Source of the DNA: an uncultured Gammaproteobacteria bacterium
GTDB lineage: Bacteria; Patescibacteriota; Microgenomatia; CAZETR01; Amesbacteraceae
NCBI GenBank assembly: GCA_964518565.1
Contig: CAZFGX010000001.1
Location: forward strand, 524,470 to 588,469
Direction: 5' to 3'
DNA length: 64,000 bases
The notes beneath the pieces are model-generated. The model ran no database searches, was not told the DNA's origin, and saw nothing but the letters and a program-made list of their open reading frames with translations. The position numbers and the translations under genes are program-made. Each line of letters starts with the position of its first letter. Position 1 is the first letter of the stretch. Positions 1,392-16,741 of the stretch are shown piece after piece.

Positions 1392-2135
1392 ATGAAACAG
1401 TCGCTTATTACCATCGCCGCGATTTTTGTCTTTGGTCTCGTATTCATTCACTTGATGCCCAGTATTCCCACTACCTCGACGGTTACCCAAAAACAAGATT
1501 TTTTGACTGTCTCCGGTGAAGGCAAGGTGACCACTATTCCAGATACCGCAATAGTGGAATTAGGAGTCAATATCAATCGCCCAACAGTCAAAGCAGCCCA
1601 AACCGAAGCCAACACTGCCATCAAAAAAATAACTGACGAAACCAAAAAACTGGGAGTAGAAGACAAAGATATTAAAACCAGCAATTATTCAGTCTATCCT
1701 CAATATGACTATACCGGTGGCAATCCTACTAGAATTACTGGCTATCAAGTAAATGTAAACCTGACTCTAAAAGTCCGCGATATAGAAAAAGTAAACAATA
1801 TTATCGATGCTGCTACTGCTCAAGGGGCAAATAGTGTCTCAGGAATCCAACTTACCGTCGATGACGCCAAACAAAAAGAACTTCGTCAAAGAGCTCGCGA
1901 CGAAGCAGTCAAAGAAGCCAAAGACAAAGCCGAAAGCTTAGCCCAAGCTGCTGGCATCAAACTCGGCCGTATTGTGAATATTCAAGAATCAGGACCTTCC
2001 TCAATCGTGCCGATGATGGCCAGAACAGTCATGAACGAAAAAGCTGGCATGGGTGGTGGCAGTGATCAGACACAAATTCAACCTGGATCAGCAGACATCA
2101 GTTCTTCAGTAACCCTCTACTACGAAACTCGCTAA
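1392..2135 (+). CDS. SIMPL-domain (DUF541) periplasmic/secreted protein
   Basis: N-terminal TM/signal segment. The pattern 'GEGKVTTIPDTAIVELGV...', the K/E-rich middle and 'GANSVSGIQLTVDDAK...LGRIVNIQE' resemble the SIMPL/26-kDa periplasmic immunogenic protein family. Confidence 0.65.
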   Translation: MKQSLITIAAIFVFGLVFIHLMPSIPTTSTVTQKQDFLTVSGEGKVTTIPDTAIVELGVNINRPTVKAAQTEANTAIKKITDETKKLGVEDKDIKTSNYSVYPQYDYTGGNPTRITGYQVNVNLTLKVRDIEKVNNIIDAATAQGANSVSGIQLTVDDAKQKELRQRARDEAVKEAKDKAESLAQAAGIKLGRIVNIQESGPSSIVPMMARTVMNEKAGMGGGSDQTQIQPGSADISSSVTLYYETR

Positions 2136-2611
2136 ACTTTCATTTGTCTGCGTATAAAAGTCTGCAACCCTCCCAAACGTCGATATTCGACTAATACATC
2201 CTTAGGAATAGTTCCGACATTCCCTAATACTTTTCTGCAATTTTTTGCCCCACACAAACACTTCATTTCCCAATCTGAATCTTTGCCTACAGTAGTCGAA
2301 TAATCAAATACTATTTCTTCACCCGTAGAAATATCTCTCAATGCTATTAAATTCGCCGTTTCACACAATAAAGCATTTGGAGTACAGGAATGATTAAAGT
2401 ACACAAAAGGCTGATGCAAATCCAAATACATCCGATCACCGATTTGCAGCGGATCATCATTACGTTCTATTCCATGATCTATCCGTCGCCAAGCCTCTTC
2501 CTGATTCATAACCTCACCCACAAACGTCGTAATGATTTCACCCTTAGCAATATCGCGGGTGGTAAATATACCCTTACCTTTAATAGGAGATTCTTTGACT
2601 AGCAAACTCAT
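2132..2611 (-). CDS. SET-domain protein (putative lysine methyltransferase)
   Basis: 'GKGIFTTRDIAKGEII', 'FNHSCTPNA', 'EEIVFDY' and the post-SET 'CLCGAKNCRK' are canonical SET/post-SET motifs. Confidence 0.75.
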   Translation of the reverse strand: MSLLVKESPIKGKGIFTTRDIAKGEIITTFVGEVMNQEEAWRRIDHGIERNDDPLQIGDRMYLDLHQPFVYFNHSCTPNALLCETANLIALRDISTGEEIVFDYSTTVGKDSDWEMKCLCGAKNCRKVLGNVGTIPKDVLVEYRRLGGLQTFIRRQMKV

Positions 2612-2616
2612 AAATA

Positions 2617-3651
2617 CTATCGGGGACTCGCCAACAAAAACTGTCGCTCTCGCATTCTATCTGGCAATCTACCGTACACACGTTTATAACAAATTGCCAC
2701 TAAAGTTTCCACAAATTCTTCATAAGTCCAACCCAATGCTTTAGCCGACAACCAGCATTCCACGTCCTCTCCATATGTTAAATCCGGCAATAAATTCATA
2801 TCAATAATATACGGCTTTCCCGCATCAGTAACTCGTACATCAAAACGAGCCACATCTCGGCATCCCAACAATCGATATGCTCGTTTTACCAACCTATCTA
2901 CAGACCGTTCTACATCTTTAGGTATATCGACTGGACATTCAACTCGACTATCCCAATACTCCCAGCTAGTTTTTTTCCACTTTGCTTCATAGGTAAACAC
3001 ACTCCAATTATCATCAAATTCACCACCGAAGCCAATTTCACAGTAGGGGAGTACTGCCAAATGAGAGGCATTCCCCACAACTGTCACATGATACTCACGC
3101 CCTTCAATAAACTCTTCAGCCACCACATCTCCTGGACAATGAATTCGTAAATATGCCAATCGATCGGATAATTCTTGTTCATCAATGACCACTGAGTCTT
3201 GTGAAATACCGACACTCGCATGTTCACCTGAAGGCTTCAAAATTAATGGGTACTGCATACTCCGCAAGGCGTGTACCTGTTTACGTAAAATACGAAAATG
3301 AGGCGTTGGCAATCCTGCATCAGCCAAGCGTCTTTTCATTTTCGCCTTACTCAAGCTATACAAAAAACTGCGACGATCAATACCAAACTGGGTTCTACCC
3401 AGATGTTCCATTGCCGAGAAAACCTTGCCCCACAATTTCCATCCGTCGTCTTCAATATAGTTTATTACTACATCCCCAGGTTGTTTCAACGCTTGACGCC
3501 AATTTCGTGACGTTACTTGAAACAACTGCACAATATGCCCACATGTTCGCAAAGCTGTAGATATTTGCATTGCGGCATCGATCGTATCTTGTTCAAAGTC
3601 AGTGTATAAAACCAAAACACGAATAGGATAATCAAATGATAATGGTGTCAT
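2617..3651 (-). CDS. ATP-grasp ligase, D-Ala-D-Ala-ligase-like
   Basis: 'LILKPSGEHASVGI', 'EEFIEGREYHVTVVG' and 'YIIDMNLLPDLT' follow the Ddl-type ATP-grasp pattern. The start overlaps the upstream gene stop by 4 nt. Confidence 0.7.
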   Translation of the reverse strand: MTPLSFDYPIRVLVLYTDFEQDTIDAAMQISTALRTCGHIVQLFQVTSRNWRQALKQPGDVVINYIEDDGWKLWGKVFSAMEHLGRTQFGIDRRSFLYSLSKAKMKRRLADAGLPTPHFRILRKQVHALRSMQYPLILKPSGEHASVGISQDSVVIDEQELSDRLAYLRIHCPGDVVAEEFIEGREYHVTVVGNASHLAVLPYCEIGFGGEFDDNWSVFTYEAKWKKTSWEYWDSRVECPVDIPKDVERSVDRLVKRAYRLLGCRDVARFDVRVTDAGKPYIIDMNLLPDLTYGEDVECWLSAKALGWTYEEFVETLVAICYKRVYGRLPDRMRERQFLLASPR

Positions 3652-4625
3652 AAAGCGTTTTGTATTACTCCAGAAATAAAATCTGCATAGCCCATACCTG
3701 CCAATTCACACGAATGGGTTAGTCCACCATCTTCATCCCAACCCACACCAGGATTATTGTTTATTTCCAAAACATATATCTGACCATTTTGAATTCGCAT
3801 ATCAATCCTGGGATAGCTTCGTCCGCCCAACCAGCGATAACACTCTACAGCCACCTGTTTCATTTTGTCCTGCACAGCTTTATCTAACACATCATCTTGC
3901 CATTGCGTCATATTTGCTTCCCAGCTATCAGACTTCCACTTAGCATCATAAGTCATAATCGGCACATAATGTTCCTTTTTTTCGTAACCAAAAATTGCTG
4001 GTGGCAAGGCTACTGGTTCACCTTGCTGTTCAATAACCGTCACAAATCCTTCCAAACCATCAATAAATGTCTCCGCAATCACCGGCTGATCAAACCTTCG
4101 CACTAAAATATCCGCTTTCCCCAACAAATCATCAGGTTTATTCACCACACTCTCTTGGGTTATACCGATTCCACAATGTTCATATGCTGGCTTCAAAATT
4201 ACTGGAAAATCCAACTTACCACCTCGCTCATCTCCACCACCAAACACACGCCATCCAGCAGTTGGAATATGATGTTTTTCAAATAGTTTTTTCATTAATA
4301 CTTTATTACTTGAGACCTCGTACCCCCACGAACCAGAACCAGTAAAACGAATTCCGGCAGATTCTAAAGTTTCGAGCACTGCTACTCCATGCTTCCAATC
4401 CTTGCCAGTCCATTCCACTAAATTAAATACCAAATCACAACTTAAACTACCCAGAATGCTTATATCAAACATTCCAATACCCTTCATTTCAACCCGATGA
4501 CCTAGTTGCTCCAATACCGACTTTACCTGTAAAGCAGACTGCATAGTATCATCATCAGACTCTGAAATATTTTTCGTTGAAGATGATCCAATTTGATTAT
4601 ATAAAACTACAATATACATGTACAC
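3648..4625 (-). CDS. ATP-grasp ligase, D-Ala-D-Ala-ligase-like (paralog of downstream gene)
   Basis: 'PVILKPAYEHCGIGI', 'ETFIDGLEGFVTVIE' and 'YVLEINNNPGVG' follow the Ddl-type ATP-grasp C-terminal pattern. Confidence 0.7.
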   Translation of the reverse strand: MYMYIVVLYNQIGSSSTKNISESDDDTMQSALQVKSVLEQLGHRVEMKGIGMFDISILGSLSCDLVFNLVEWTGKDWKHGVAVLETLESAGIRFTGSGSWGYEVSSNKVLMKKLFEKHHIPTAGWRVFGGGDERGGKLDFPVILKPAYEHCGIGITQESVVNKPDDLLGKADILVRRFDQPVIAETFIDGLEGFVTVIEQQGEPVALPPAIFGYEKKEHYVPIMTYDAKWKSDSWEANMTQWQDDVLDKAVQDKMKQVAVECYRWLGGRSYPRIDMRIQNGQIYVLEINNNPGVGWDEDGGLTHSCELAGMGYADFISGVIQNAL

Positions 4626-4705
4626 ATCAATTCAAAAGACATCACTAAACCTTGTCAAGTATTTATTTGCCTTACTACAGCCCAAAAACCACTATATTAC
4701 CCTCA

Positions 4706-6457
4706 CTAAAAGATTATACGTGCGCCACCCAAATCTGGGTAATCAAATTCATGAAATTTATGTATTGAACCAATCATAATTTTGTTTTTGTGAACTTTAA
4801 ATTTTTTCACTGCATTTTCAATTGCTTGTGGTCCAAATGGCTCATCCTCATAATAATATTCCAAGTTGAGATGGGGGAATACGCCAGCTTTTTCCAAGAC
4901 TGGTATTGCTTGCTTTATTTCTTCATATCGCTGGATATCATCCTTGCCATCATGATTTCGACAATGAACAAAAACGATATTGCGAGTTTTTTCATTCCAA
5001 TTGATATATTTCAAGATAGAGTACAGCCGATCTACATGATTAATAAATACTACGATCTTTCCATCAATAGTGTTTTTAAAACGTTTTTGAATAAAGCTAT
5101 GCAGTGGTGTGCCTCGAGTCAAGCGTAACAATGCCCGCAAAGTATAATCTTCGTACACCACAGCCAAAGTGATAGCGACCGCTGGCAAAAAATACATCAA
5201 AAAGTAAACAATATTCATTTTGTCGATCAAAATATTCCCCACAATACCTACAACCGTGGCACAGAACGCAATAACCACCAATGGAATTGGTGCCTTATAA
5301 GTTCTTTTTAGTTCAGACCGATTTCCTCTCAATAATAAATTCCCAAACGCAAACAAACTCATTACGCTTAAGAATGCAATAGTATAAACCCCAGCCAAAG
5401 ACAAAATATTTCCCTTAGTCACCAGCAAAATTGAAGTGCACAAAACAAAAAATCCCAAAATAATCTTCCAATATGAACCTTTACTATTTTGGCCAGTCAA
5501 AAAATCAGGCAAGCAGGCATCAGCTGCCATACGATAGACCAATCCAGATACTCCTACATAAGAGGTCAAGACCGCTCCAGCCAAAACCATAAACGCATCT
5601 GCCACAATAAGTACCTGAAATATCGGTCCACCTAGTATCAAGGCTTCCCGTGCCAATAAAAATTCTTTTGCCTGATCAATAACTGCCAGAGGACTACTAT
5701 TCAAAGCCACCAATGCAATCAAGGGATTAAAAATAGCCACCCCCACCAGCATATTTCTCAAGGTTTTACGAAATACACCAGATTGCTGTTCTTCTACAAA
5801 ATTCGCACTACTTTCAAATCCTGAAACACCCAGCAGTGATGCCGCAAAACCAAAAAACAACATTTTCACCAAACCATCCTTACCAACCAATTCAGTCATT
5901 GTGTGAGAAATATTCTCCACAAAATAAGACTGAGATGTAAGCGCATATTTTGCCCCCATAATTAAAAACAAACTCAAACAAATTACATGAAAAATAAAAA
6001 TAAATAGCGCAACCTTAGCAGAGTCTTTCAATCCTGATATCACCAAAACCGCAAAAGCCAGAAGTAAAACAATCGTTACAGGGATAATCGGAATCTGAAT
6101 AAGAGTATGCACATATTCCACGGCTACAACGGCTGAAATAACTGCGGTCGCCACATATGACAATACGGTCGTTACACCTGCAATAGCTGCAATGGTTTTT
6201 GAGGTACTATTGAGCAAACAGTTATATGCTCCACCGTTTACTGGTAAAGCTTCTACAACCTCGGTATAGACAGATTTATAACAAAAAAGTACCACTGCAA
6301 TGACTGCCAATACCAAAGGGGCATACACACCCGCAAAAAGCGCCGCAATACCTGACACGTACAGTGCCGAACTCAAAATATCATTCCCACAAATCGCAGT
6401 GGCGAACCACTGACTCAACTTAACATGATGTGGTGGGTGTGAAGACGTTTTACCCAT
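4706..6457 (-). CDS. APC-family amino-acid permease with extra C-terminal cytoplasmic domain
   Basis: About 12 TM segments. The N-terminus 'SQWFATAICGNDILSSALYVSG' is typical of an APC/amino acid transporter N-terminus. The final ~140 aa are hydrophilic and not part of the permease core. Confidence 0.7.
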   Translation of the reverse strand: MGKTSSHPPHHVKLSQWFATAICGNDILSSALYVSGIAALFAGVYAPLVLAVIAVVLFCYKSVYTEVVEALPVNGGAYNCLLNSTSKTIAAIAGVTTVLSYVATAVISAVVAVEYVHTLIQIPIIPVTIVLLLAFAVLVISGLKDSAKVALFIFIFHVICLSLFLIMGAKYALTSQSYFVENISHTMTELVGKDGLVKMLFFGFAASLLGVSGFESSANFVEEQQSGVFRKTLRNMLVGVAIFNPLIALVALNSSPLAVIDQAKEFLLAREALILGGPIFQVLIVADAFMVLAGAVLTSYVGVSGLVYRMAADACLPDFLTGQNSKGSYWKIILGFFVLCTSILLVTKGNILSLAGVYTIAFLSVMSLFAFGNLLLRGNRSELKRTYKAPIPLVVIAFCATVVGIVGNILIDKMNIVYFLMYFLPAVAITLAVVYEDYTLRALLRLTRGTPLHSFIQKRFKNTIDGKIVVFINHVDRLYSILKYINWNEKTRNIVFVHCRNHDGKDDIQRYEEIKQAIPVLEKAGVFPHLNLEYYYEDEPFGPQAIENAVKKFKVHKNKIMIGSIHKFHEFDYPDLGGARIIF

Positions 6458-6542
6458 ATATTCAAAAAAAATCGGCCAACGGGCAGATTGGCGCCACCTA
6501 ATTTTATGCCTAAATATTTTTTTTTACAAATAGGGGAGAGAG

Positions 6543-14067: not shown

Positions 14068-14424
14068 ATGGCTCAAACAATCAAAACTAGTCCTGAGAAT
14101 GCACTTCAAATAGTCACACAAGTTGCAAATCAATTCTCCGGAAAACCCTACGATCTAACCACGATTGTTTCGGGGCAGCAAAATCGACACGCAAAAATAA
14201 CCAAATCAAGCATTTTGCTAGAGTTCGATGGAATACATGCAATAAAAATAATTGCAAATGATAGCGCTCTAGACAAAATCCCTATATGGGAAGTTCATGT
14301 GTATCCCGAGAATTCACCAAATTTCCACAAAAACCCCTCAATCACTTTCGACAAAAAAGATTGTGTAATTGATTGGGTAGACGAATTTGAACGACACGTA
14401 ACATATATCCTGAGAAATCTTTAA
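14068..14424 (+). CDS. small-protein paralog family member B (cassette 1)
   Basis: AAGGAGGA Shine-Dalgarno. N-terminal 'KTSPENALQIVTQVANQF' and 'NPSITFDKKD' motifs. Confidence 0.55.
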   Translation: MAQTIKTSPENALQIVTQVANQFSGKPYDLTTIVSGQQNRHAKITKSSILLEFDGIHAIKIIANDSALDKIPIWEVHVYPENSPNFHKNPSITFDKKDCVIDWVDEFERHVTYILRNL

Positions 14425-14442
14425 ACTCTGCAGTTTATCCCT

Positions 14443-14471
14443 AGCGCCGGTCACCCCGGCGCTTTTTTTTG
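14443..14471 (+). terminator. rho-independent terminator (cassette 1)
   Basis: Stem AGCGCCGG/CCGGCGCT with loop TCACC, followed by T8. Confidence 0.75.
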
Positions 14472-14546
14472 GGAATTACTAGCCAAAAAGAGTAAAATAC
14501 ACTCCCCTGTTCGTACTTTGACAAATACGTGAGTATAGGAGGTTAT

Positions 14547-14912
14547 ATGACTTCAACTAGGTCAGTAAGACTAAGCTTGGATAATAAATTTGAGTTATTA
14601 CAACAACTTCGAAACCATTTTCCAACCGACTATCAATATACATACACCATGAATGGCCAACTGGTCGAATCAAAAATAGTCAAATCCCGATTTGTACTCA
14701 AAACTTTTGAAAACAATGATGGTTGGTGGTACTTATTTGCTCTAGATGACAAAAATGATATTCAGTGGGGTTTCTTTTTTGTCAATGAAAAGACAACAGC
14801 CAGAAAAAGAAACCCAGTTTTCTTATTCACTGACGAAGGAATTCTTATTCACTTCGAGTTAAAAACCAGAGATAGATTGGAATACAAATTAGAAAAAATA
14901 AAGGAGAAATAG
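14547..14912 (+). CDS. small-protein paralog family member C (cassette 2)
   Basis: AGGAGG Shine-Dalgarno then ATG at 14547. 'IQWGFFFVNEKTTARKRNPVFLFTDEG' parallels member A. Confidence 0.55.
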   Translation: MTSTRSVRLSLDNKFELLQQLRNHFPTDYQYTYTMNGQLVESKIVKSRFVLKTFENNDGWWYLFALDDKNDIQWGFFFVNEKTTARKRNPVFLFTDEGILIHFELKTRDRLEYKLEKIKEK

Positions 14913-14913
14913 T

Positions 14914-15252
14914 ATGGAACAGATACAAATTACCCCCGGAAACGCTAAAGAAATTGCGACCAAGTTACAGCAACTACTTCAAAATCGACAATTTCGATTT
15001 CGGTTTTATCGAAACAGTATTCAAGAAAAAATTCTCGCCAACACATCATTGGCAGATACAAACTCCTTGCTTGTAGACAATCCCTCTGACCCACACGCAC
15101 TTCATATTCATCTGGCAAACGAGTCACTCATATTGGTTCTCGCATTTTTCTACACCCTAAAAGTCACGGCCAACCCCGTCGTTATCACAGTCACAAGCAT
15201 GGCCATGCGTCATCACCCGACAATGATGTATGAGTTTGAAATCTTGCCGTAA
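14914..15252 (+). CDS. small-protein paralog family member D (cassette 2)
   Basis: AAGGAG Shine-Dalgarno. N-terminal 'ITPGNAKEIATKLQQLL' and 'NPVVITVTS'. Confidence 0.55.
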   Translation: MEQIQITPGNAKEIATKLQQLLQNRQFRFRFYRNSIQEKILANTSLADTNSLLVDNPSDPHALHIHLANESLILVLAFFYTLKVTANPVVITVTSMAMRHHPTMMYEFEILP

Positions 15253-15265
15253 ATAAGGAGAAAAT

Positions 15266-15622
15266 ATGCAACAGTCAATACTATTGAATGCACAAACATG
15301 CGAATCAATTATTCAAGAGTTAATTAGCCGTTTAAATACAAAAACATTCTCCTACACTTTTCTAGACCCAGACAATACGATCACTGAACATGTTGCAAAC
15401 CTTCAATTAAGACCAAACGTTCCAAATCCAATCATGTATGGAGAACACTGTTTCATCATTGCACTGGCAGGGACAAAAAGTATTTTTGTCCGTCCTGAAA
15501 AAGATGACTCGGTAATGTTCAATTTCTTAGAAGATGAATCAGTAGTAATTGTAAACAGATCCAATCAAAAACAATTCAAATTGGTTATTCTCTCGGGAGG
15601 CAAGCATGCAAGTAGCAGCTGA
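15266..15622 (+). CDS. small-protein paralog family member E (cassette 2)
   Basis: AAGGAG Shine-Dalgarno. N-terminal 'LLNAQTCESIIQELISRL' and 'DSVMFNFLEDE'. Confidence 0.55.
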   Translation: MQQSILLNAQTCESIIQELISRLNTKTFSYTFLDPDNTITEHVANLQLRPNVPNPIMYGEHCFIIALAGTKSIFVRPEKDDSVMFNFLEDESVVIVNRSNQKQFKLVILSGGKHASSS

Positions 15623-15935
15623 AGATACCTTAAAAGTAATTCGAATTGTCCGTGGTTGGTTGAAAGATACAAAAGTATCTGTCAAACACACCCAAAATAA
15701 TGGTGATGTCGATCAAACCCAAGATGTCACAATTTCAGGCAACCAAATCAGCTTCTCTCGTAGCCCAGTGTTTATGGAAAATATGTTCATCCACATTGGA
15801 AACTGGACGGCTGTTCTATATCCAAGATCTGCCAAAGATAAACAAACGACCATTGAAACCTCAAAGACACACATGACGATTGTCGTCAAAAACAAAAGTG
15901 GTGAAGAAACTTGGGTATTTGCACCCATGGAGTAA
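15606..15935 (+). CDS. small-protein paralog family member F (cassette 2)
   Basis: GGGAGG Shine-Dalgarno. Overlaps E by 17 nt. 'SPVFMENMFIHIGNW' is a weaker N-terminal motif match. Confidence 0.5.
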   Translation: MQVAAEDTLKVIRIVRGWLKDTKVSVKHTQNNGDVDQTQDVTISGNQISFSRSPVFMENMFIHIGNWTAVLYPRSAKDKQTTIETSKTHMTIVVKNKSGEETWVFAPME

Positions 15936-15954
15936 TCATCAAGACAAATCCCCT

Positions 15955-15982
15955 AGCGCCGGTCACCCCGGCGCTTTTTTTA
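15955..15982 (+). terminator. rho-independent terminator (cassette 2), near-identical copy of the 14443 terminator
   Basis: Same AGCGCCGG-TCACC-CCGGCGCT hairpin plus T-run. About 32 nt are identical to the first copy including flanks. Confidence 0.75.
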
Positions 15983-16069
15983 TTTTCATAAATAACCTAT
16001 AATAATAATTTCGGGGCAACAGCTGTCCCAAATTTTGTACATTCATAAATTACATAAGGAGAAAATCGT

Positions 16070-16414
16070 ATGGCTGATGTGCTAGTTCTTAGTCCAAATA
16101 CCGTCGCTGAAATCGTCGACAAAACTCGTAAACTACTCGATCAAAAGAAGTTTGATTACACCAAACGCCCAATCAAAATCACACACGACTCGCCGCCCAT
16201 AATCTTGTATAACGTGAGTCTAAATCCACAGAGAAGTTATGGTCGCCATCCGGTGTATATGGTCAGTGACAACATTTTAAGTTTCCTATACATCCATTTT
16301 AGCGAAAGCACTATATCACTTAGTTCTAGACAAGTAGTTGTCTTTGAATTTGAGTCAAACCAACTACGAATCAAAACTAAGTATGCTGAGCAGACTTTCA
16401 CTATCCAGGAGTAA
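16070..16414 (+). CDS. small-protein paralog family member G (cassette 3)
   Basis: AAGGAG Shine-Dalgarno. 'LSPNTVAEIVDKTRKLL' and 'HPVYMVSDN'. Confidence 0.55.
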   Translation: MADVLVLSPNTVAEIVDKTRKLLDQKKFDYTKRPIKITHDSPPIILYNVSLNPQRSYGRHPVYMVSDNILSFLYIHFSESTISLSSRQVVVFEFESNQLRIKTKYAEQTFTIQE

Positions 16415-16417
16415 ATT

Positions 16418-16741
16418 ATGACAGCACTAGTAGTCGGTCCCCAAAACACCTGGTACAGTCTCGAACGCGAGAATTTACCACTTTGGGTGTTCATGAACCA
16501 ACATCTATCCTGTTTACGTAAATTTACCCTAGATACCCTGATCGAAATCGAATATCTGCTTCATCACCAAAATCTGTGTATCTCAGAGACTAGTCCTTGG
16601 CAAGTTCTTGACCAACTCCGACAAGGCCTCTGCCTACTGGGTATTTCCGACATCGATGTTGGTCTTGAAGAAGCTCGAACGAAGTTTGCCTTATGTGATC
16701 CAAACACGTTTAAGGTCAGATTAGAAAAACATCTGATCTAA
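16418..16741 (+). CDS. small protein H (cassette 3), possible divergent family member
   Basis: AGGAG Shine-Dalgarno. Similar size. 'GPQNTWYSLERENL' and C-terminal 'DPNTFKVRL' give weak family resemblance. Confidence 0.45.
   Translation: MTALVVGPQNTWYSLERENLPLWVFMNQHLSCLRKFTLDTLIEIEYLLHHQNLCISETSPWQVLDQLRQGLCLLGISDIDVGLEEARTKFALCDPNTFKVRLEKHLI

Follow-up and report, generated by a model that had tools for sequence, protein, structure and literature searches.

The conserved unit of this locus is a pair of adjacent ATP-grasp ligase genes, AGA and AGB, and not the four-gene combination on which the preliminary description had based its proposal of a small peptide or protein-modification pathway. 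The locus in the window (the whole 64-kb stretch of DNA analyzed) may be regarded as a rare, lineage-specific elaboration of this two-ligase module. Our favored but tentative reading, to which we give somewhat less than even weight, is that the pair constitutes a two-step amide-forming module acting on a lysine- or diamine-like amine, and that the product is capped by acetylation or, in this genome, by SET methylation.

The small-genome, uncultured bacterium carries four co-directional genes on the minus strand (2132-6457). All open reading frames could be located, and Pfam matches agreed with each of the four domain assignments made before. The genes and the signals around them are:

4706..6457, minus strand: APC-superfamily permease of 583 amino acids (Pfam AA_permease_2)
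3648..4625, minus strand: AGA, ATP-grasp ligase A of 325 amino acids, first gene of the ligase pair (Pfam Dala_Dala_lig_C)
2617..3651, minus strand: AGB, ATP-grasp ligase B of 344 amino acids, second gene of the ligase pair (Pfam Dala_Dala_lig_C)
2132..2611, minus strand: minimal SET plus post-SET methyltransferase of 159 amino acids, last gene of the unit (Pfam SET, PF00856)
6475..6492, minus strand: terminator-like hairpin with T-run between xerC and the permease gene (consensus scan, pattern match only)
6501..6529, minus strand: promoter-like site 5' of the permease gene, TTGTAA, 17-nt spacer, TAAAAT (consensus scan, 9 of 12 matches)
4630..4658, minus strand: candidate internal promoter in the permease-AGA gap, perfect TTGACA, 17-nt spacer, poor -10 TTGAAT (direct reading)

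The junctions were read directly from the sequence. As described previously, the AGA stop and the AGB start share the tetranucleotide ATGA, a 4-nt overlap, and 80 nt separate the permease stop from the GTG start codon of AGA. The gap upstream of the SET gene had been given as 6 nt, but the TAG of AGB is followed by TATTT and then by the SET ATG, i.e. by 5 nt, a spacing that implies translational coupling. The SET gene and the flanking SIMPL gene are convergent with overlapping stop codons. At the other end, the hairpin (GCCAATCTGCCCGTTGGC, then CGATTTTTTT), found by the scan and also read directly, is likely to form the upstream boundary of the transcription unit. The promoter-like site 5' of the permease gene is weak evidence, as the region has no more of these sites than expected from shuffling. 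The candidate internal promoter was not reported by the promoter scan since its -10 element fails the scan rule; a terminator-like hairpin was not detected in the 80-nt gap.

AGB has 314 close homologs, mostly from Microgenomates; at E <= 1e-30, its matches fall into 179 representative clusters. Orthologs of AGA occupy the same position at loci L004, L005, L006 and L170 and at many metagenome loci, and the order xerC, ligase pair, SIMPL, gyrA is kept in 41 of 61 dereplicated Microgenomates-like lineages. Far more than chance is needed to explain that dozens of independent contigs carry these two genes in the order seen here. Moreover, the best 150 representatives include at least 16 fusions of ligase to ligase, and 13 family members are ligase-GNAT fusions. 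Since AGA and AGB are always adjacent, translationally coupled and elsewhere fused, they evidently work together.

In other lineages, the pair is accompanied by a limited set of enzymes. Its usual third gene in Microgenomates, present in 26 of the 61 lineages, encodes an AdoMet_dc-family pyruvoyl decarboxylase, and in Amesbacteria this gene overlaps the AGB stop. All 21 partners of this kind (21/21) score above the gathering score of PF02675 and far below the model of true AdoMetDC, and their presumed cleavage site is Thr-Ser, not Glu-Ser. AdoMetDC homologs of CPR bacteria have been characterized experimentally as L-Orn/L-Arg decarboxylases (PMC10407285). Tandem pairs in other phyla lie beside a KamA-family aminomutase in 19 of 24 cases and beside a GNAT in 18 of 24. 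The aminomutases best match AblA (476-493 bits, just under the 525-bit cut-off) and match Glu and Arg aminomutase models too, while the free-standing GNATs best match RimI and gave no AblB match. At one locus (L041), the pair is followed by a GNAT fused to an HDAC/acetylpolyamine-amidohydrolase-like domain. A rough NJ tree places the two Microgenomates paralogs as descendants of a single one of the two ligase types found in the KamA/GNAT clusters; hence, these clusters inform on the substrate only indirectly. Within the 64-kb window, neither a KamA-family aminomutase nor such a GNAT nor an AdoMet_dc-family gene was found.

Both ligases match Dala_Dala_lig_C (AGB 2.3e-26, AGA 6.7e-18), and their identity of 28% over 305 residues (E 4e-34) identifies them, at the level of sequence, as true paralogs, in line with the earlier proposal. 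Their relationship to genuine D-Ala-D-Ala ligases is more distant. The best Ddl model of NCBIfam yielded 107 bits for AGA and 116 bits for AGB (cut-off 243), and under half of every Ddl cut-off was reached. Residues were mapped on a working E. coli DdlB sequence whose key motifs agree with PDB alignments. Residues for ATP and Mg binding and catalysis (K97, K144, E180, E187, K215, R255, D257, E/D270, N272) are kept family-wide, while E15, H63, S150, Y216, S281 and L282 are exchanged across the family. AGA has Cys for S150, Trp for Y216 and Glu for H63 at D-Ala positions. The AGB pocket is acidic, with Glu at H63, Asp/Glu at S281 and Asp/Ser at G276, replacements that would fit a cationic nucleophile. 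No residue of the D-Ala1 triad (E15/S150/Y216) or of the carboxylate site for D-Ala2 (S281/L282) is retained in either protein, which speaks against the Ddl-like D-Ala sites considered in the preliminary description. An AF2 model of AGB (pLDDT 88.7) found only Ddl structures as top Foldseek matches, with TM values of 0.75-0.85 at 20-23% identity; by sequence, only the central and C-terminal domains could be aligned to Ddl, the N-terminal domain remaining unaligned. From the kept residues, AGA and AGB are predicted to be catalytically intact ATP-grasp enzymes with a Ddl fold. That one of them might be the bona fide cell-wall Ddl was considered and rejected on account of the sub-cut-off scores and the replacement of every D-Ala-binding residue.

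The SET protein (PF00856, 5.3e-15) is canonical, as had been suggested: GxG, NHSC, FDY with the catalytic Tyr and the post-SET CxCx4C motif are invariant among relatives, so that the catalytic Asn, His and Tyr as well as the post-SET cysteines are all kept. Past the post-SET motif, a C-terminal extension of approximately 25 residues is conserved. Profile searches retrieved the SET domains of MLL/SET1/ASH1L/NSD at about 1e-28, while a word-indexed search yielded only 13 relatives. It is the only SET protein in the window. Characterized SET-domain enzymes methylate protein lysines and are not known to methylate small molecules.

On the favored reading, AGA and AGB would catalyze amide formation once or twice, via the acyl phosphate typical of ATP-grasp enzymes, on a small substrate whose primary amine resembles that of lysine or of a diamine; Lys, Orn, a beta-amino acid and a decarboxylated diamine would be candidates. 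The enzymes making or capping this amine would vary by lineage: a fused or adjacent GNAT, a KamA-type 2,3-aminomutase, an HDAC/acetylpolyamine-amidohydrolase-like domain or, in most Microgenomates, the AdoMet_dc-family pyruvoyl decarboxylase. In this genome, SET would provide the cap by N-methylating, with SAM, the amine of the product that ligation leaves free, and the co-transcribed permease may either import an amino-acid precursor that the auxotrophic host cannot make or export the product. As product class, a di- or tripeptide or a conjugate of amino acid and diamine, in either case capped and possibly betaine-like, is the most plausible; a compatible solute would be an example.

The strongest competing explanation, although we consider it doubtful, is that a protein is modified. 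The ligases would then add amino acids to the C-terminus or to a Lys or Glu side chain of a protein, as RimK and tubulin-tyrosine-ligase-like enzymes do, SET would methylate a lysine of the same target, and the GNAT and HDAC-like partners elsewhere would acetylate and deacetylate it. SET, GNAT and HDAC are classical protein-lysine modifiers, with histone-lysine methyltransferases closest to the window SET. Among the GNATs, the fused ones belong to the RimJ/RimL type (Acetyltransf_3) and the free ones best match RimI. Many ligase-family members also show weak Pfam matches to TTL and RimK, and in one member the N-terminus carries a TPR, a module that binds proteins. According to the Aravind group, peptide-modifying enzymes of this kind originated in bacterial peptide systems (PMC2938197). 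On the other hand, the ligases are nearest to the small-molecule enzyme Ddl and not to TTL or RimK (22 bits versus a cut-off of 143), KamA aminomutases and pyruvoyl decarboxylases use free amino acids, and no conserved candidate gene for a target protein accompanies the pair in the syntenic loci of the 61 lineages.

Another explanation, slightly less probable still, is that the adjacency is fortuitous: the pair would have its own role, normally with the AdoMet_dc-like decarboxylase, and SET and permease would be unrelated arrivals in variable slots, co-transcribed by position only. Both gaps flanking the pair indeed carry assorted cargo (NUDIX+RHH, Peptidase_C39, MFS transporters at a few loci, an IS200-like transposase, and others), which makes this explanation likelier. 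The permease, whose core (residues 14-428 of 583) matches AA_permease_2 at 1.5e-47, lies below every substrate-specific cut-off of NCBIfam. Its cytoplasmic alpha/beta domain at the C-terminus (residues ~430-583, nt 4709-5170) is conserved in the family and has no Pfam match; the fold matches of its AF2 model (pLDDT 87) were all weak and USP/HUP-like (E >= 0.008, TM <= 0.5). More than 6000 full-length homologs with about 60-72% identity occur in Patescibacteria, a very large, housekeeping-like family in mostly unrelated contexts (such as L171 and L172), and the GC content of the permease gene (0.34-0.36) is below that of its neighbors (0.40-0.44). It adjoins the pair in two of the 61 lineages only, with the order permease-AGA-AGB of the window recurring at L170. 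SET adjoins the pair in four of 61, and its closest homologs outside the lineage never adjoin ATP-grasp genes. These low numbers, together with the canonical MLL/ASH1-like minimal SET, also count against the favored reading.

However, the SET genes at the pair are of three types with 27-29% mutual identity and in three arrangements. An ortholog with 65% identity lies at L004 in the same position and strand, 5 nt after AGB as in the window; an unrelated SET gene is located divergently upstream of the pair at L120/L122, and a third type divergently upstream of permease-AGA-AGB at L170. Judged by these sequences, SET genes joined the pair independently at least three times. Assuming that a genome of ~1000 genes holds about one SET gene and that four or five slots adjoin the pair, we roughly estimate by hand that chance would give ~0.2-0.3 such events in 41-61 lineages. 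Furthermore, both permease-bearing loci also carry SET, AGB and SET are closely spaced, and one metagenomic protein (P0322) is a ligase with a fused, degenerate SET-like C-terminal tail devoid of the catalytic Tyr. The co-occurrence of ATP-grasp and SET genes that the preliminary description had proposed to look for was thus encountered as repeated recruitment and fusion, which supports a functional link of SET and ligases, but not as a widespread arrangement. SET is probably a rare but non-accidental partner of the pair, and this repeated association provides a concrete, testable clue to SET roles in bacteria.

A role of the pair in the cell wall, either in making D-Ala-D-Ala or a variant dipeptide for peptidoglycan or in attaching a side-chain or cross-bridge residue to the stem-peptide lysine like the ATP-grasp D-aspartate ligase of Enterococcus, is improbable, since the Ddl/VanA-like fold and best sequence matches, a weak match of AGA to an archaeal pseudomurein Ddl-like model (37 bits), a convergent Peptidase_C39-like neighbor in 15 of 61 lineages and a further ORF of the window that resembles LD-carboxypeptidase (read from its N-terminus only) are opposed by the low Ddl scores, the replaced D-Ala sites, the N-terminal domain that cannot be aligned to Ddl by sequence, the lack of mur/fts genes in the 64-kb window and in every syntenic locus, and the linkage of the family to KamA, GNAT and decarboxylase genes instead of mur.

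What the proposed amide-forming module has in common with the Ddl/VanA family (EC 6.3.2.4), the best sequence match in Pfam, NCBIfam and PDB, is the three-domain ATP-grasp fold and the residues for ATP, Mg and phosphoryl transfer. What separates the AGA/AGB family from it, apart from the low identity and the unaligned N-terminal domain, is an invariant Trp for Y216, an invariant Glu for H63, Cys or Ala for S150, a Trp-rich insertion in the omega loop, and the occurrence as a tandem or fused paralog pair without mur/fts context. In mycosporine-like amino acid synthesis, the consecutive ATP-grasp ligases MysC and Ddl-like MysD are a precedent for the stepwise addition of amino acids to a small molecule, but the window has neither a dimethyl-4-deoxygadusol synthase nor an O-methyltransferase, its ligases are mutual paralogs and their context is different. 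In the synthesis of N-acetylglutaminylglutamine amide (NAGGN), the bifunctional GNAT/ATP-grasp protein Ngg produces an N-capped small peptide osmolyte, a coupling of dipeptide ligation and N-capping that resembles the ligase-GNAT fusions. The ATP-grasp part of Ngg is not known to be of the Ddl type, the domain order is reversed, and second ligase, aminomutase and SET are absent; the cap in the window would be methyl instead of acetyl. The N-epsilon-acetyl-beta-lysine pathway (AblA and AblB) shares the KamA-family aminomutase and small GNAT with pair operons of other phyla; however, it needs no ligase, and the window contains neither gene. The usual third gene in Microgenomates shares PF02675 with the neofunctionalized AdoMetDC/SpeD homologs of CPR and other phyla, which are pyruvoyl L-Orn/L-Arg decarboxylases (PMC10407285), yet it clusters with ligases rather than polyamine synthases and has the Thr-Ser site. 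Finally, the window SET has the core, post-SET Zn motif, NHSC and catalytic Tyr of minimal prokaryotic and viral SET proteins and of eukaryotic MLL/SET1/ASH1L/NSD, but differs from known SET enzymes by its place as last gene of an amide-ligase operon, its C-terminal extension and a substrate that may be non-protein.

The four genes lie on the minus strand at the coordinates assigned to them in the preliminary description, and the domain identities proposed there were matched by Pfam.

Genes of the operon (window positions, strand, product, Pfam match)
4706-6457, minus: permease, 583 aa (AA_permease_2, 1.5e-47)
3648-4625, minus: ATP-grasp ligase AGA, 325 aa (Dala_Dala_lig_C, 6.7e-18)
2617-3651, minus: ATP-grasp ligase AGB, 344 aa (Dala_Dala_lig_C, 2.3e-26)
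2132-2611, minus: SET protein, 159 aa (SET, 5.3e-15)

The AGA stop and the AGB start share the nucleotides ATGA, which agrees with the 4-nt overlap described before, and the gap between the permease gene and AGA is indeed 80 nt long. The distance between the AGB stop and the SET ATG had to be corrected from 6 to 5 nt. Within the 80-nt gap, a perfect TTGACA and a poor -10 element may constitute an internal promoter (approximately 4630-4658). A terminator-like hairpin (6492-6475) was identified between the upstream xerC-like gene and the operon, while none was detected inside it. Being co-directional, overlapping or closely spaced and free of an internal terminator, the four genes are predicted to form one transcription unit. 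Its last gene, SET, converges on a SIMPL/DUF541 gene. None of the four proteins matched a PADLOC defence model at E <= 0.001, so that a known anti-phage defence system was rejected. Elsewhere the window resembles a streamlined genome, with numerous small genes that lack annotation. The nearest relatives are Microgenomates/Patescibacteria. Between positions 1 and 14000 the GC skew is negative in nearly all 500-bp bins and the cumulative skew drops steadily, which fits a single replichore stretch with genes mostly on the minus strand; over the permease gene the GC content dips to 0.34-0.36. Seven co-directional, tightly spaced plus-strand ORFs of 107-127 aa are located at 14068-16741, but jackhmmer comparisons among them revealed no mutual similarity, and no paralogy was detected.

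AGA and AGB, which are 28% identical, are members of the ATP-grasp superfamily according to their Pfam matches (Dala_Dala_lig_C and ATP-grasp_3) and the mapping of nucleotide- and Mg-binding residues. Their matches in the PDB were exclusively Ddl/VanA (approximately 1e-14 with single sequences and 1e-25 with profiles), the sequence alignments covering only the central and C-terminal domains. An AlphaFold (AF2) model of AGB (pLDDT 88.7) superposed over its full length on Ddl structures (TM 0.75-0.85, 20-23% identity), and the best 50 Foldseek matches of this model were all Ddl/VanA (TM up to 0.86). The RimK family model reached only 22 bits with AGA (cut-off 143.4), and TTL and RimK Pfam matches of the ligase family were faint and lay beneath a stronger Ddl match, so RimK/TTL was rejected as the closest family. 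Nevertheless, all curated Ddl models scored the two ligases at less than half of the respective cut-off: NF002378 (NCBIfam) gave 115.6 bits for AGB and 107.2 bits for AGA (cut-off 243), TIGR01205 gave 96 and 95 (cut-off 245.65). To compare the active sites, 84 family members were aligned, and the positions of what we take to be the E. coli DdlB sequence were transferred to this alignment. K97, K144, E180, E187, K215, R255, D257, E/D270 and N272 (DdlB numbering), the ATP, Mg and phosphoryl-transfer residues, are kept in both paralogs. By contrast, the D-Ala1 triad is replaced (E15 by S/F/D, S150 by C in AGA or A in AGB, Y216 by an invariant W), and so is the D-Ala2 carboxylate site (S281 by G/E/D, L282 by G/C/A, H63 by an invariant E). 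The alignments with PDB sequences, too, show the changes from K-Y to K-W and from GSSVG to HAGIG, and the omega loop contains a Trp-rich insertion, "TY[DE]AKWK..SWE". The question raised earlier, whether the pockets contain Ddl-like D-Ala sites, was answered by this mapping in so far as the D-Ala site is lost in both ligases while the ATP/Mg residues persist. Neither the 64-kb window nor the syntenic loci (flanks xerC, SIMPL and gyrA) revealed mur/fts genes, and a canonical ddl was found neither in the window nor among the 174 loci examined. The possibility that one of the two enzymes is a bona fide Ddl encoded beside mur/ftsQ was rejected, as scores, substrate residues and gene context all speak against it; a cell-wall role of ligases with this fold is likewise considered less likely. 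From residues and model we conclude that AGA and AGB are probably active carboxylate-amine ligases for substrates other than D-Ala. Because substitutions in the AGB pocket are acidic, its nucleophile may be cationic.

An exhaustive search yielded 179 representative clusters of the ligase family at E <= 1e-30. Among the best 150 representatives, there were at least 16 ligase-ligase fusions, 13 ligase-GNAT fusions and one ligase with a C-terminal SET-like domain (P0322). The ligase-ligase fusions indicate that the translationally coupled pair acts as one unit. This phylum-spanning family of Ddl fold is routinely mis-annotated as D-alanine--D-alanine ligase. No NCBIfam model describes it or its SET association, and the literature searched contained neither an ATP-grasp/SET operon nor an ATP-grasp/aminomutase cluster; an older survey may mention the KamA/GNAT/ligase variant. 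In close relatives, AGB-homolog neighbourhoods and a metagenome scan revealed the syntenic order xerC, AGA, AGB, variable gene, SIMPL, gyrA. Dereplication at 95% identity left 61 lineages, in 41 of which the pair is visible, and both gaps flanking it are variable slots.

Genes within 2.5 kb of the pair (number of lineages)
AdoMet_dc-family gene (PF02675): 26/61 (21/21 above the gathering score)
Peptidase_C39-like gene: 15/61
NUDIX (+RHH) gene: 7/61
SET gene: 4/61
APC permease gene: 2/61

In the upstream slot, a divergent RHH+NUDIX gene recurs (loci L006, L091, L097, L101, L103, L111 and L136), in the downstream slot a convergent stand-alone Peptidase_C39-like gene (L006, L090, L095, L104-L107, L114, L136, L140 and L161). 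MFS transporters and an IS200-like transposase are occasional occupants of the slots.

The usual third gene is the AdoMet_dc-like one (plus strand, L006:9056-9439 and L005:9080-9424; also about 24 other loci, e.g. L089, L101 and L120). Its product (121-129 aa, approximately 70% identity) is translationally coupled to AGB in most of the Microgenomates lineages, and in Amesbacteria-like loci the gene overlaps the AGB stop. With the true AdoMetDC model, these proteins scored 24-27 bits (cut-off 75.65). They share the invariant motif 'LIETS..HFSE..FSCKWFD', and at the presumed pyruvoyl cleavage site Ser, His and Cys are kept while Thr-Ser replaces Glu-Ser. As neither single-sequence nor profile searches gave matches to PDB sequences, the pyruvoyl site was assigned by inspecting the motif. 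Experiments on AdoMetDC homologs from CPR bacteria and other phyla have shown that these were neofunctionalised to L-ornithine/L-arginine decarboxylases (PMC10407285). Judged by its sequence, the partner of the pair is probably a neofunctionalised decarboxylase too.

Scanning one genome per species, the family was also found at 30-35% identity in Bacteroidota, Ignavibacteriota, Chloroflexota, Omnitrophota, Planctomycetota, Steroidobacteraceae and Aenigmatarchaeota. Of at least 24 tandem pairs in other phyla, at least 19 have a KamA-family 2,3-aminomutase nearby and at least 18 a small GNAT; these counts are lower bounds because the simple longest-ORF approach makes errors where the GC content is high (for L027, L029 and L039, for example, it gave no ligase ORF). 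A ligase-ligase-GNAT-aminomutase operon is located on the plus strand at L011:6776-10619, and this layout is widespread, with examples from Bacteroidota, Ignavibacteriota, Chloroflexota, Omnitrophota and other groups (also L014, L018, L024, L037, L051, L053, L055, L067, L068, L087 and further loci). No characterised member was found among the ligases of these operons, whose annotation is again routinely that of a D-alanine--D-alanine ligase. The best match of the aminomutases was AblA, with 476-493 bits below the cut-off of 525.4, and the GNATs of these clusters gave no AblB match. Since AblA/AblB-type genes are both absent from the window as well, the N-epsilon-acetyl-beta-lysine pathway was rejected. 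Directly 3' of another pair, a gene at L041:1662-3731 (plus strand) encodes a 689-aa fusion of a GNAT and an HDAC/acetylpolyamine-amidohydrolase domain (PF00850, 1.8e-76), which places an N-acetylation writer and eraser in one protein. In a single-copy ligase clade, a gene for a putative Zn metallopeptidase (Pfam Peptidase_Mx) is always situated 5' of the ligase.

Peptidase_Mx genes with a single-copy ligase
L035:6950-8993
L046:5787-7783
L058:6713-8924
L066:6865-8891
L031:6808-8927
L036:6869-8993

This suggests that ligase and hydrolase form a couple with a common amide bond as target. A rough NJ tree places the clade as sister group of the Microgenomates paralogs.

The permease has an APC transporter core (AA_permease_2, residues 14-428, 162.9 bits against a threshold of 27), and matches to substrate subfamilies were sub-threshold only (TIGR00909, 39.9 versus 556.8 bits; ethanolamine permease, 33.6 versus 381.75). 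Its family comprises more than 6000 full-length homologs with 60-72% identity in Patescibacteria, most of them in unrelated contexts. The best non-self homolog (72%) is that of locus L170, where it is placed with respect to the pair just as in the window. Thousands of Patescibacteria homologs share the C-terminal residues 430-583 (window 4709-5170, minus strand; approximately 150 residues), which match no Pfam family. The model of this region is a confident alpha/beta domain with weak USP/HUP-like fold matches; it may be an uncharacterised regulatory domain.

The SET protein scored 56.2 bits with the Pfam SET model (PF00856, gathering score 22.4), and its profile matched the SET domain of KMT2D at 2.5e-28. 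Loss of the catalytic Tyr/Asn, which by the preliminary description would have spoken against its interpretation, was not observed: N73, H74, C76, Y104 and the post-SET residues C118, C120 and C125 are the same in every aligned sequence. No gene for a methylation target is conserved in the vicinity. The family is small (13 matches). Some relatives occur as tandem arrays of two to three SET genes without ATP-grasp neighbours, e.g. in a Kiritimatiellales MAG.

Tandem SET arrays
L169:1182-2876, plus strand
L173:1463-2512, plus strand
L174:2375-3424, plus strand

Whether ATP-grasp and SET genes co-occur, as the preliminary description proposed to check, depends on the side from which one looks. 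From the ligase side co-occurrence was confirmed in four lineages and three arrangements. In the window and in L004, the order is AGA-AGB-SET on the same strand (SETs 65% identical). In L120/L122, a gene for a 137-aa SET protein lies divergently between xerC and AGA, and AdoMet_dc is retained after AGB; that SET has simply displaced AdoMet_dc in situ was thus rejected as a complete account. In L170, an incomplete SET gene at the contig end (Pfam 1.9e-13) is divergent from permease-AGA-AGB. Both permease-bearing loci with the pair also have SET. From the SET side, by contrast, none of eight contexts of the nearest homologs (P0002-P0005, P0003, P0007, P0008) contained an ATP-grasp gene, the neighbours being radical-SAM/SPASM, HisKA, tandem-SET or unrelated genes. 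A six-frame scan of all loci and the window disclosed no further SET outside the loci retrieved by SET queries. Given the variable slots on either side of the pair, SET may have been inserted there by chance. However, the SET types of the three arrangements are mutually only 27-29% identical, which indicates independent recruitments, and three such arrivals plus one fusion favour a functional link. Hence pure coincidence is less likely, and a functional connection between SET and the ligases somewhat the better bet. The SET-like tail of the fusion protein P0322 (522 aa; 24.8 bits, gathering score 22.4) has the core "FLSHSDNPN...GEEFTLD" and lacks the catalytic Tyr; by its sequence, this tail may have degenerated into a binding module or may be an enzyme that has diverged.

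Taken together, the pair consists of translationally coupled, intact non-Ddl ATP-grasp ligases, recurrently coupled in genomes to enzymes which produce the primary amines of basic amino acids or which shift, cap or uncap them. The amine-directed partners (KamA, the pyruvoyl decarboxylase, GNAT, the HDAC-like domain and SET) all point to lysine- or polyamine-type amine chemistry. AGA and AGB might accordingly build a small amide-linked product with a lysine- or diamine-type amine, which would be methylated by SET in the window lineage, while the permease would bring in the precursor. The main rival explanation is that the same enzymology is directed at a protein, similar to RimK/TTL combined with lysine methylation or acetylation. 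The canonical, histone-methyltransferase-like SET domain is in line with a protein target, whereas the affinity of the ligases to Ddl and the presence of free-amino-acid enzymes among the partners speak against it. It is rather doubtful that SET is a small-molecule N-methyltransferase which modifies, possibly up to a betaine-like trimethylammonium, a lysine- or diamine-type amine at the end of a peptide or conjugate formed by the two ligases.

To our knowledge, the characterised bacterial SET enzymes are secreted effectors methylating host histones, and little has been established about the role of SET methyltransferases in non-pathogenic bacteria with a free-living lifestyle. With a SET gene coupled to a conserved ligase pair, which two other, unrelated SET lineages joined independently, a clonable four-gene system is available in which the SET substrate, be it the ligase product or a ligase-modified protein, can be sought directly. 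The analysis also delimits an uncharacterised ligase family of Ddl fold that comprises about 180 representative clusters and in which fusions of ligase to ligase or of ligase to GNAT are frequent. Its retention in CPR genomes of approximately 1 Mb with few biosynthetic pathways suggests that the module is physiologically important in these bacteria. If SET acted on the ligase product, the SET fold would gain its first known non-protein substrate and with it a new activity. The locus would then illustrate in a present-day organism how chromatin-type modifiers (SET, GNAT, HDAC, TTL-like ligases) are proposed to have arisen, namely from peptide-metabolite pathways of bacteria.

Among known systems, the locus belongs to none of the Ddl, AblA/AblB and RimK families. 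With Ddl/VanA the pair has the three-domain fold and the ATP/Mg catalytic residues in common, and it differs in the D-Ala residues and in lacking a mur/fts context. The locus family borrows partners from N-epsilon-acetyl-beta-lysine synthesis. In its presumed mode of action, the window locus resembles the ATP-grasp small-peptide pathways of Ddl/VanA, Ngg (NAGGN synthesis) and MysC/MysD.
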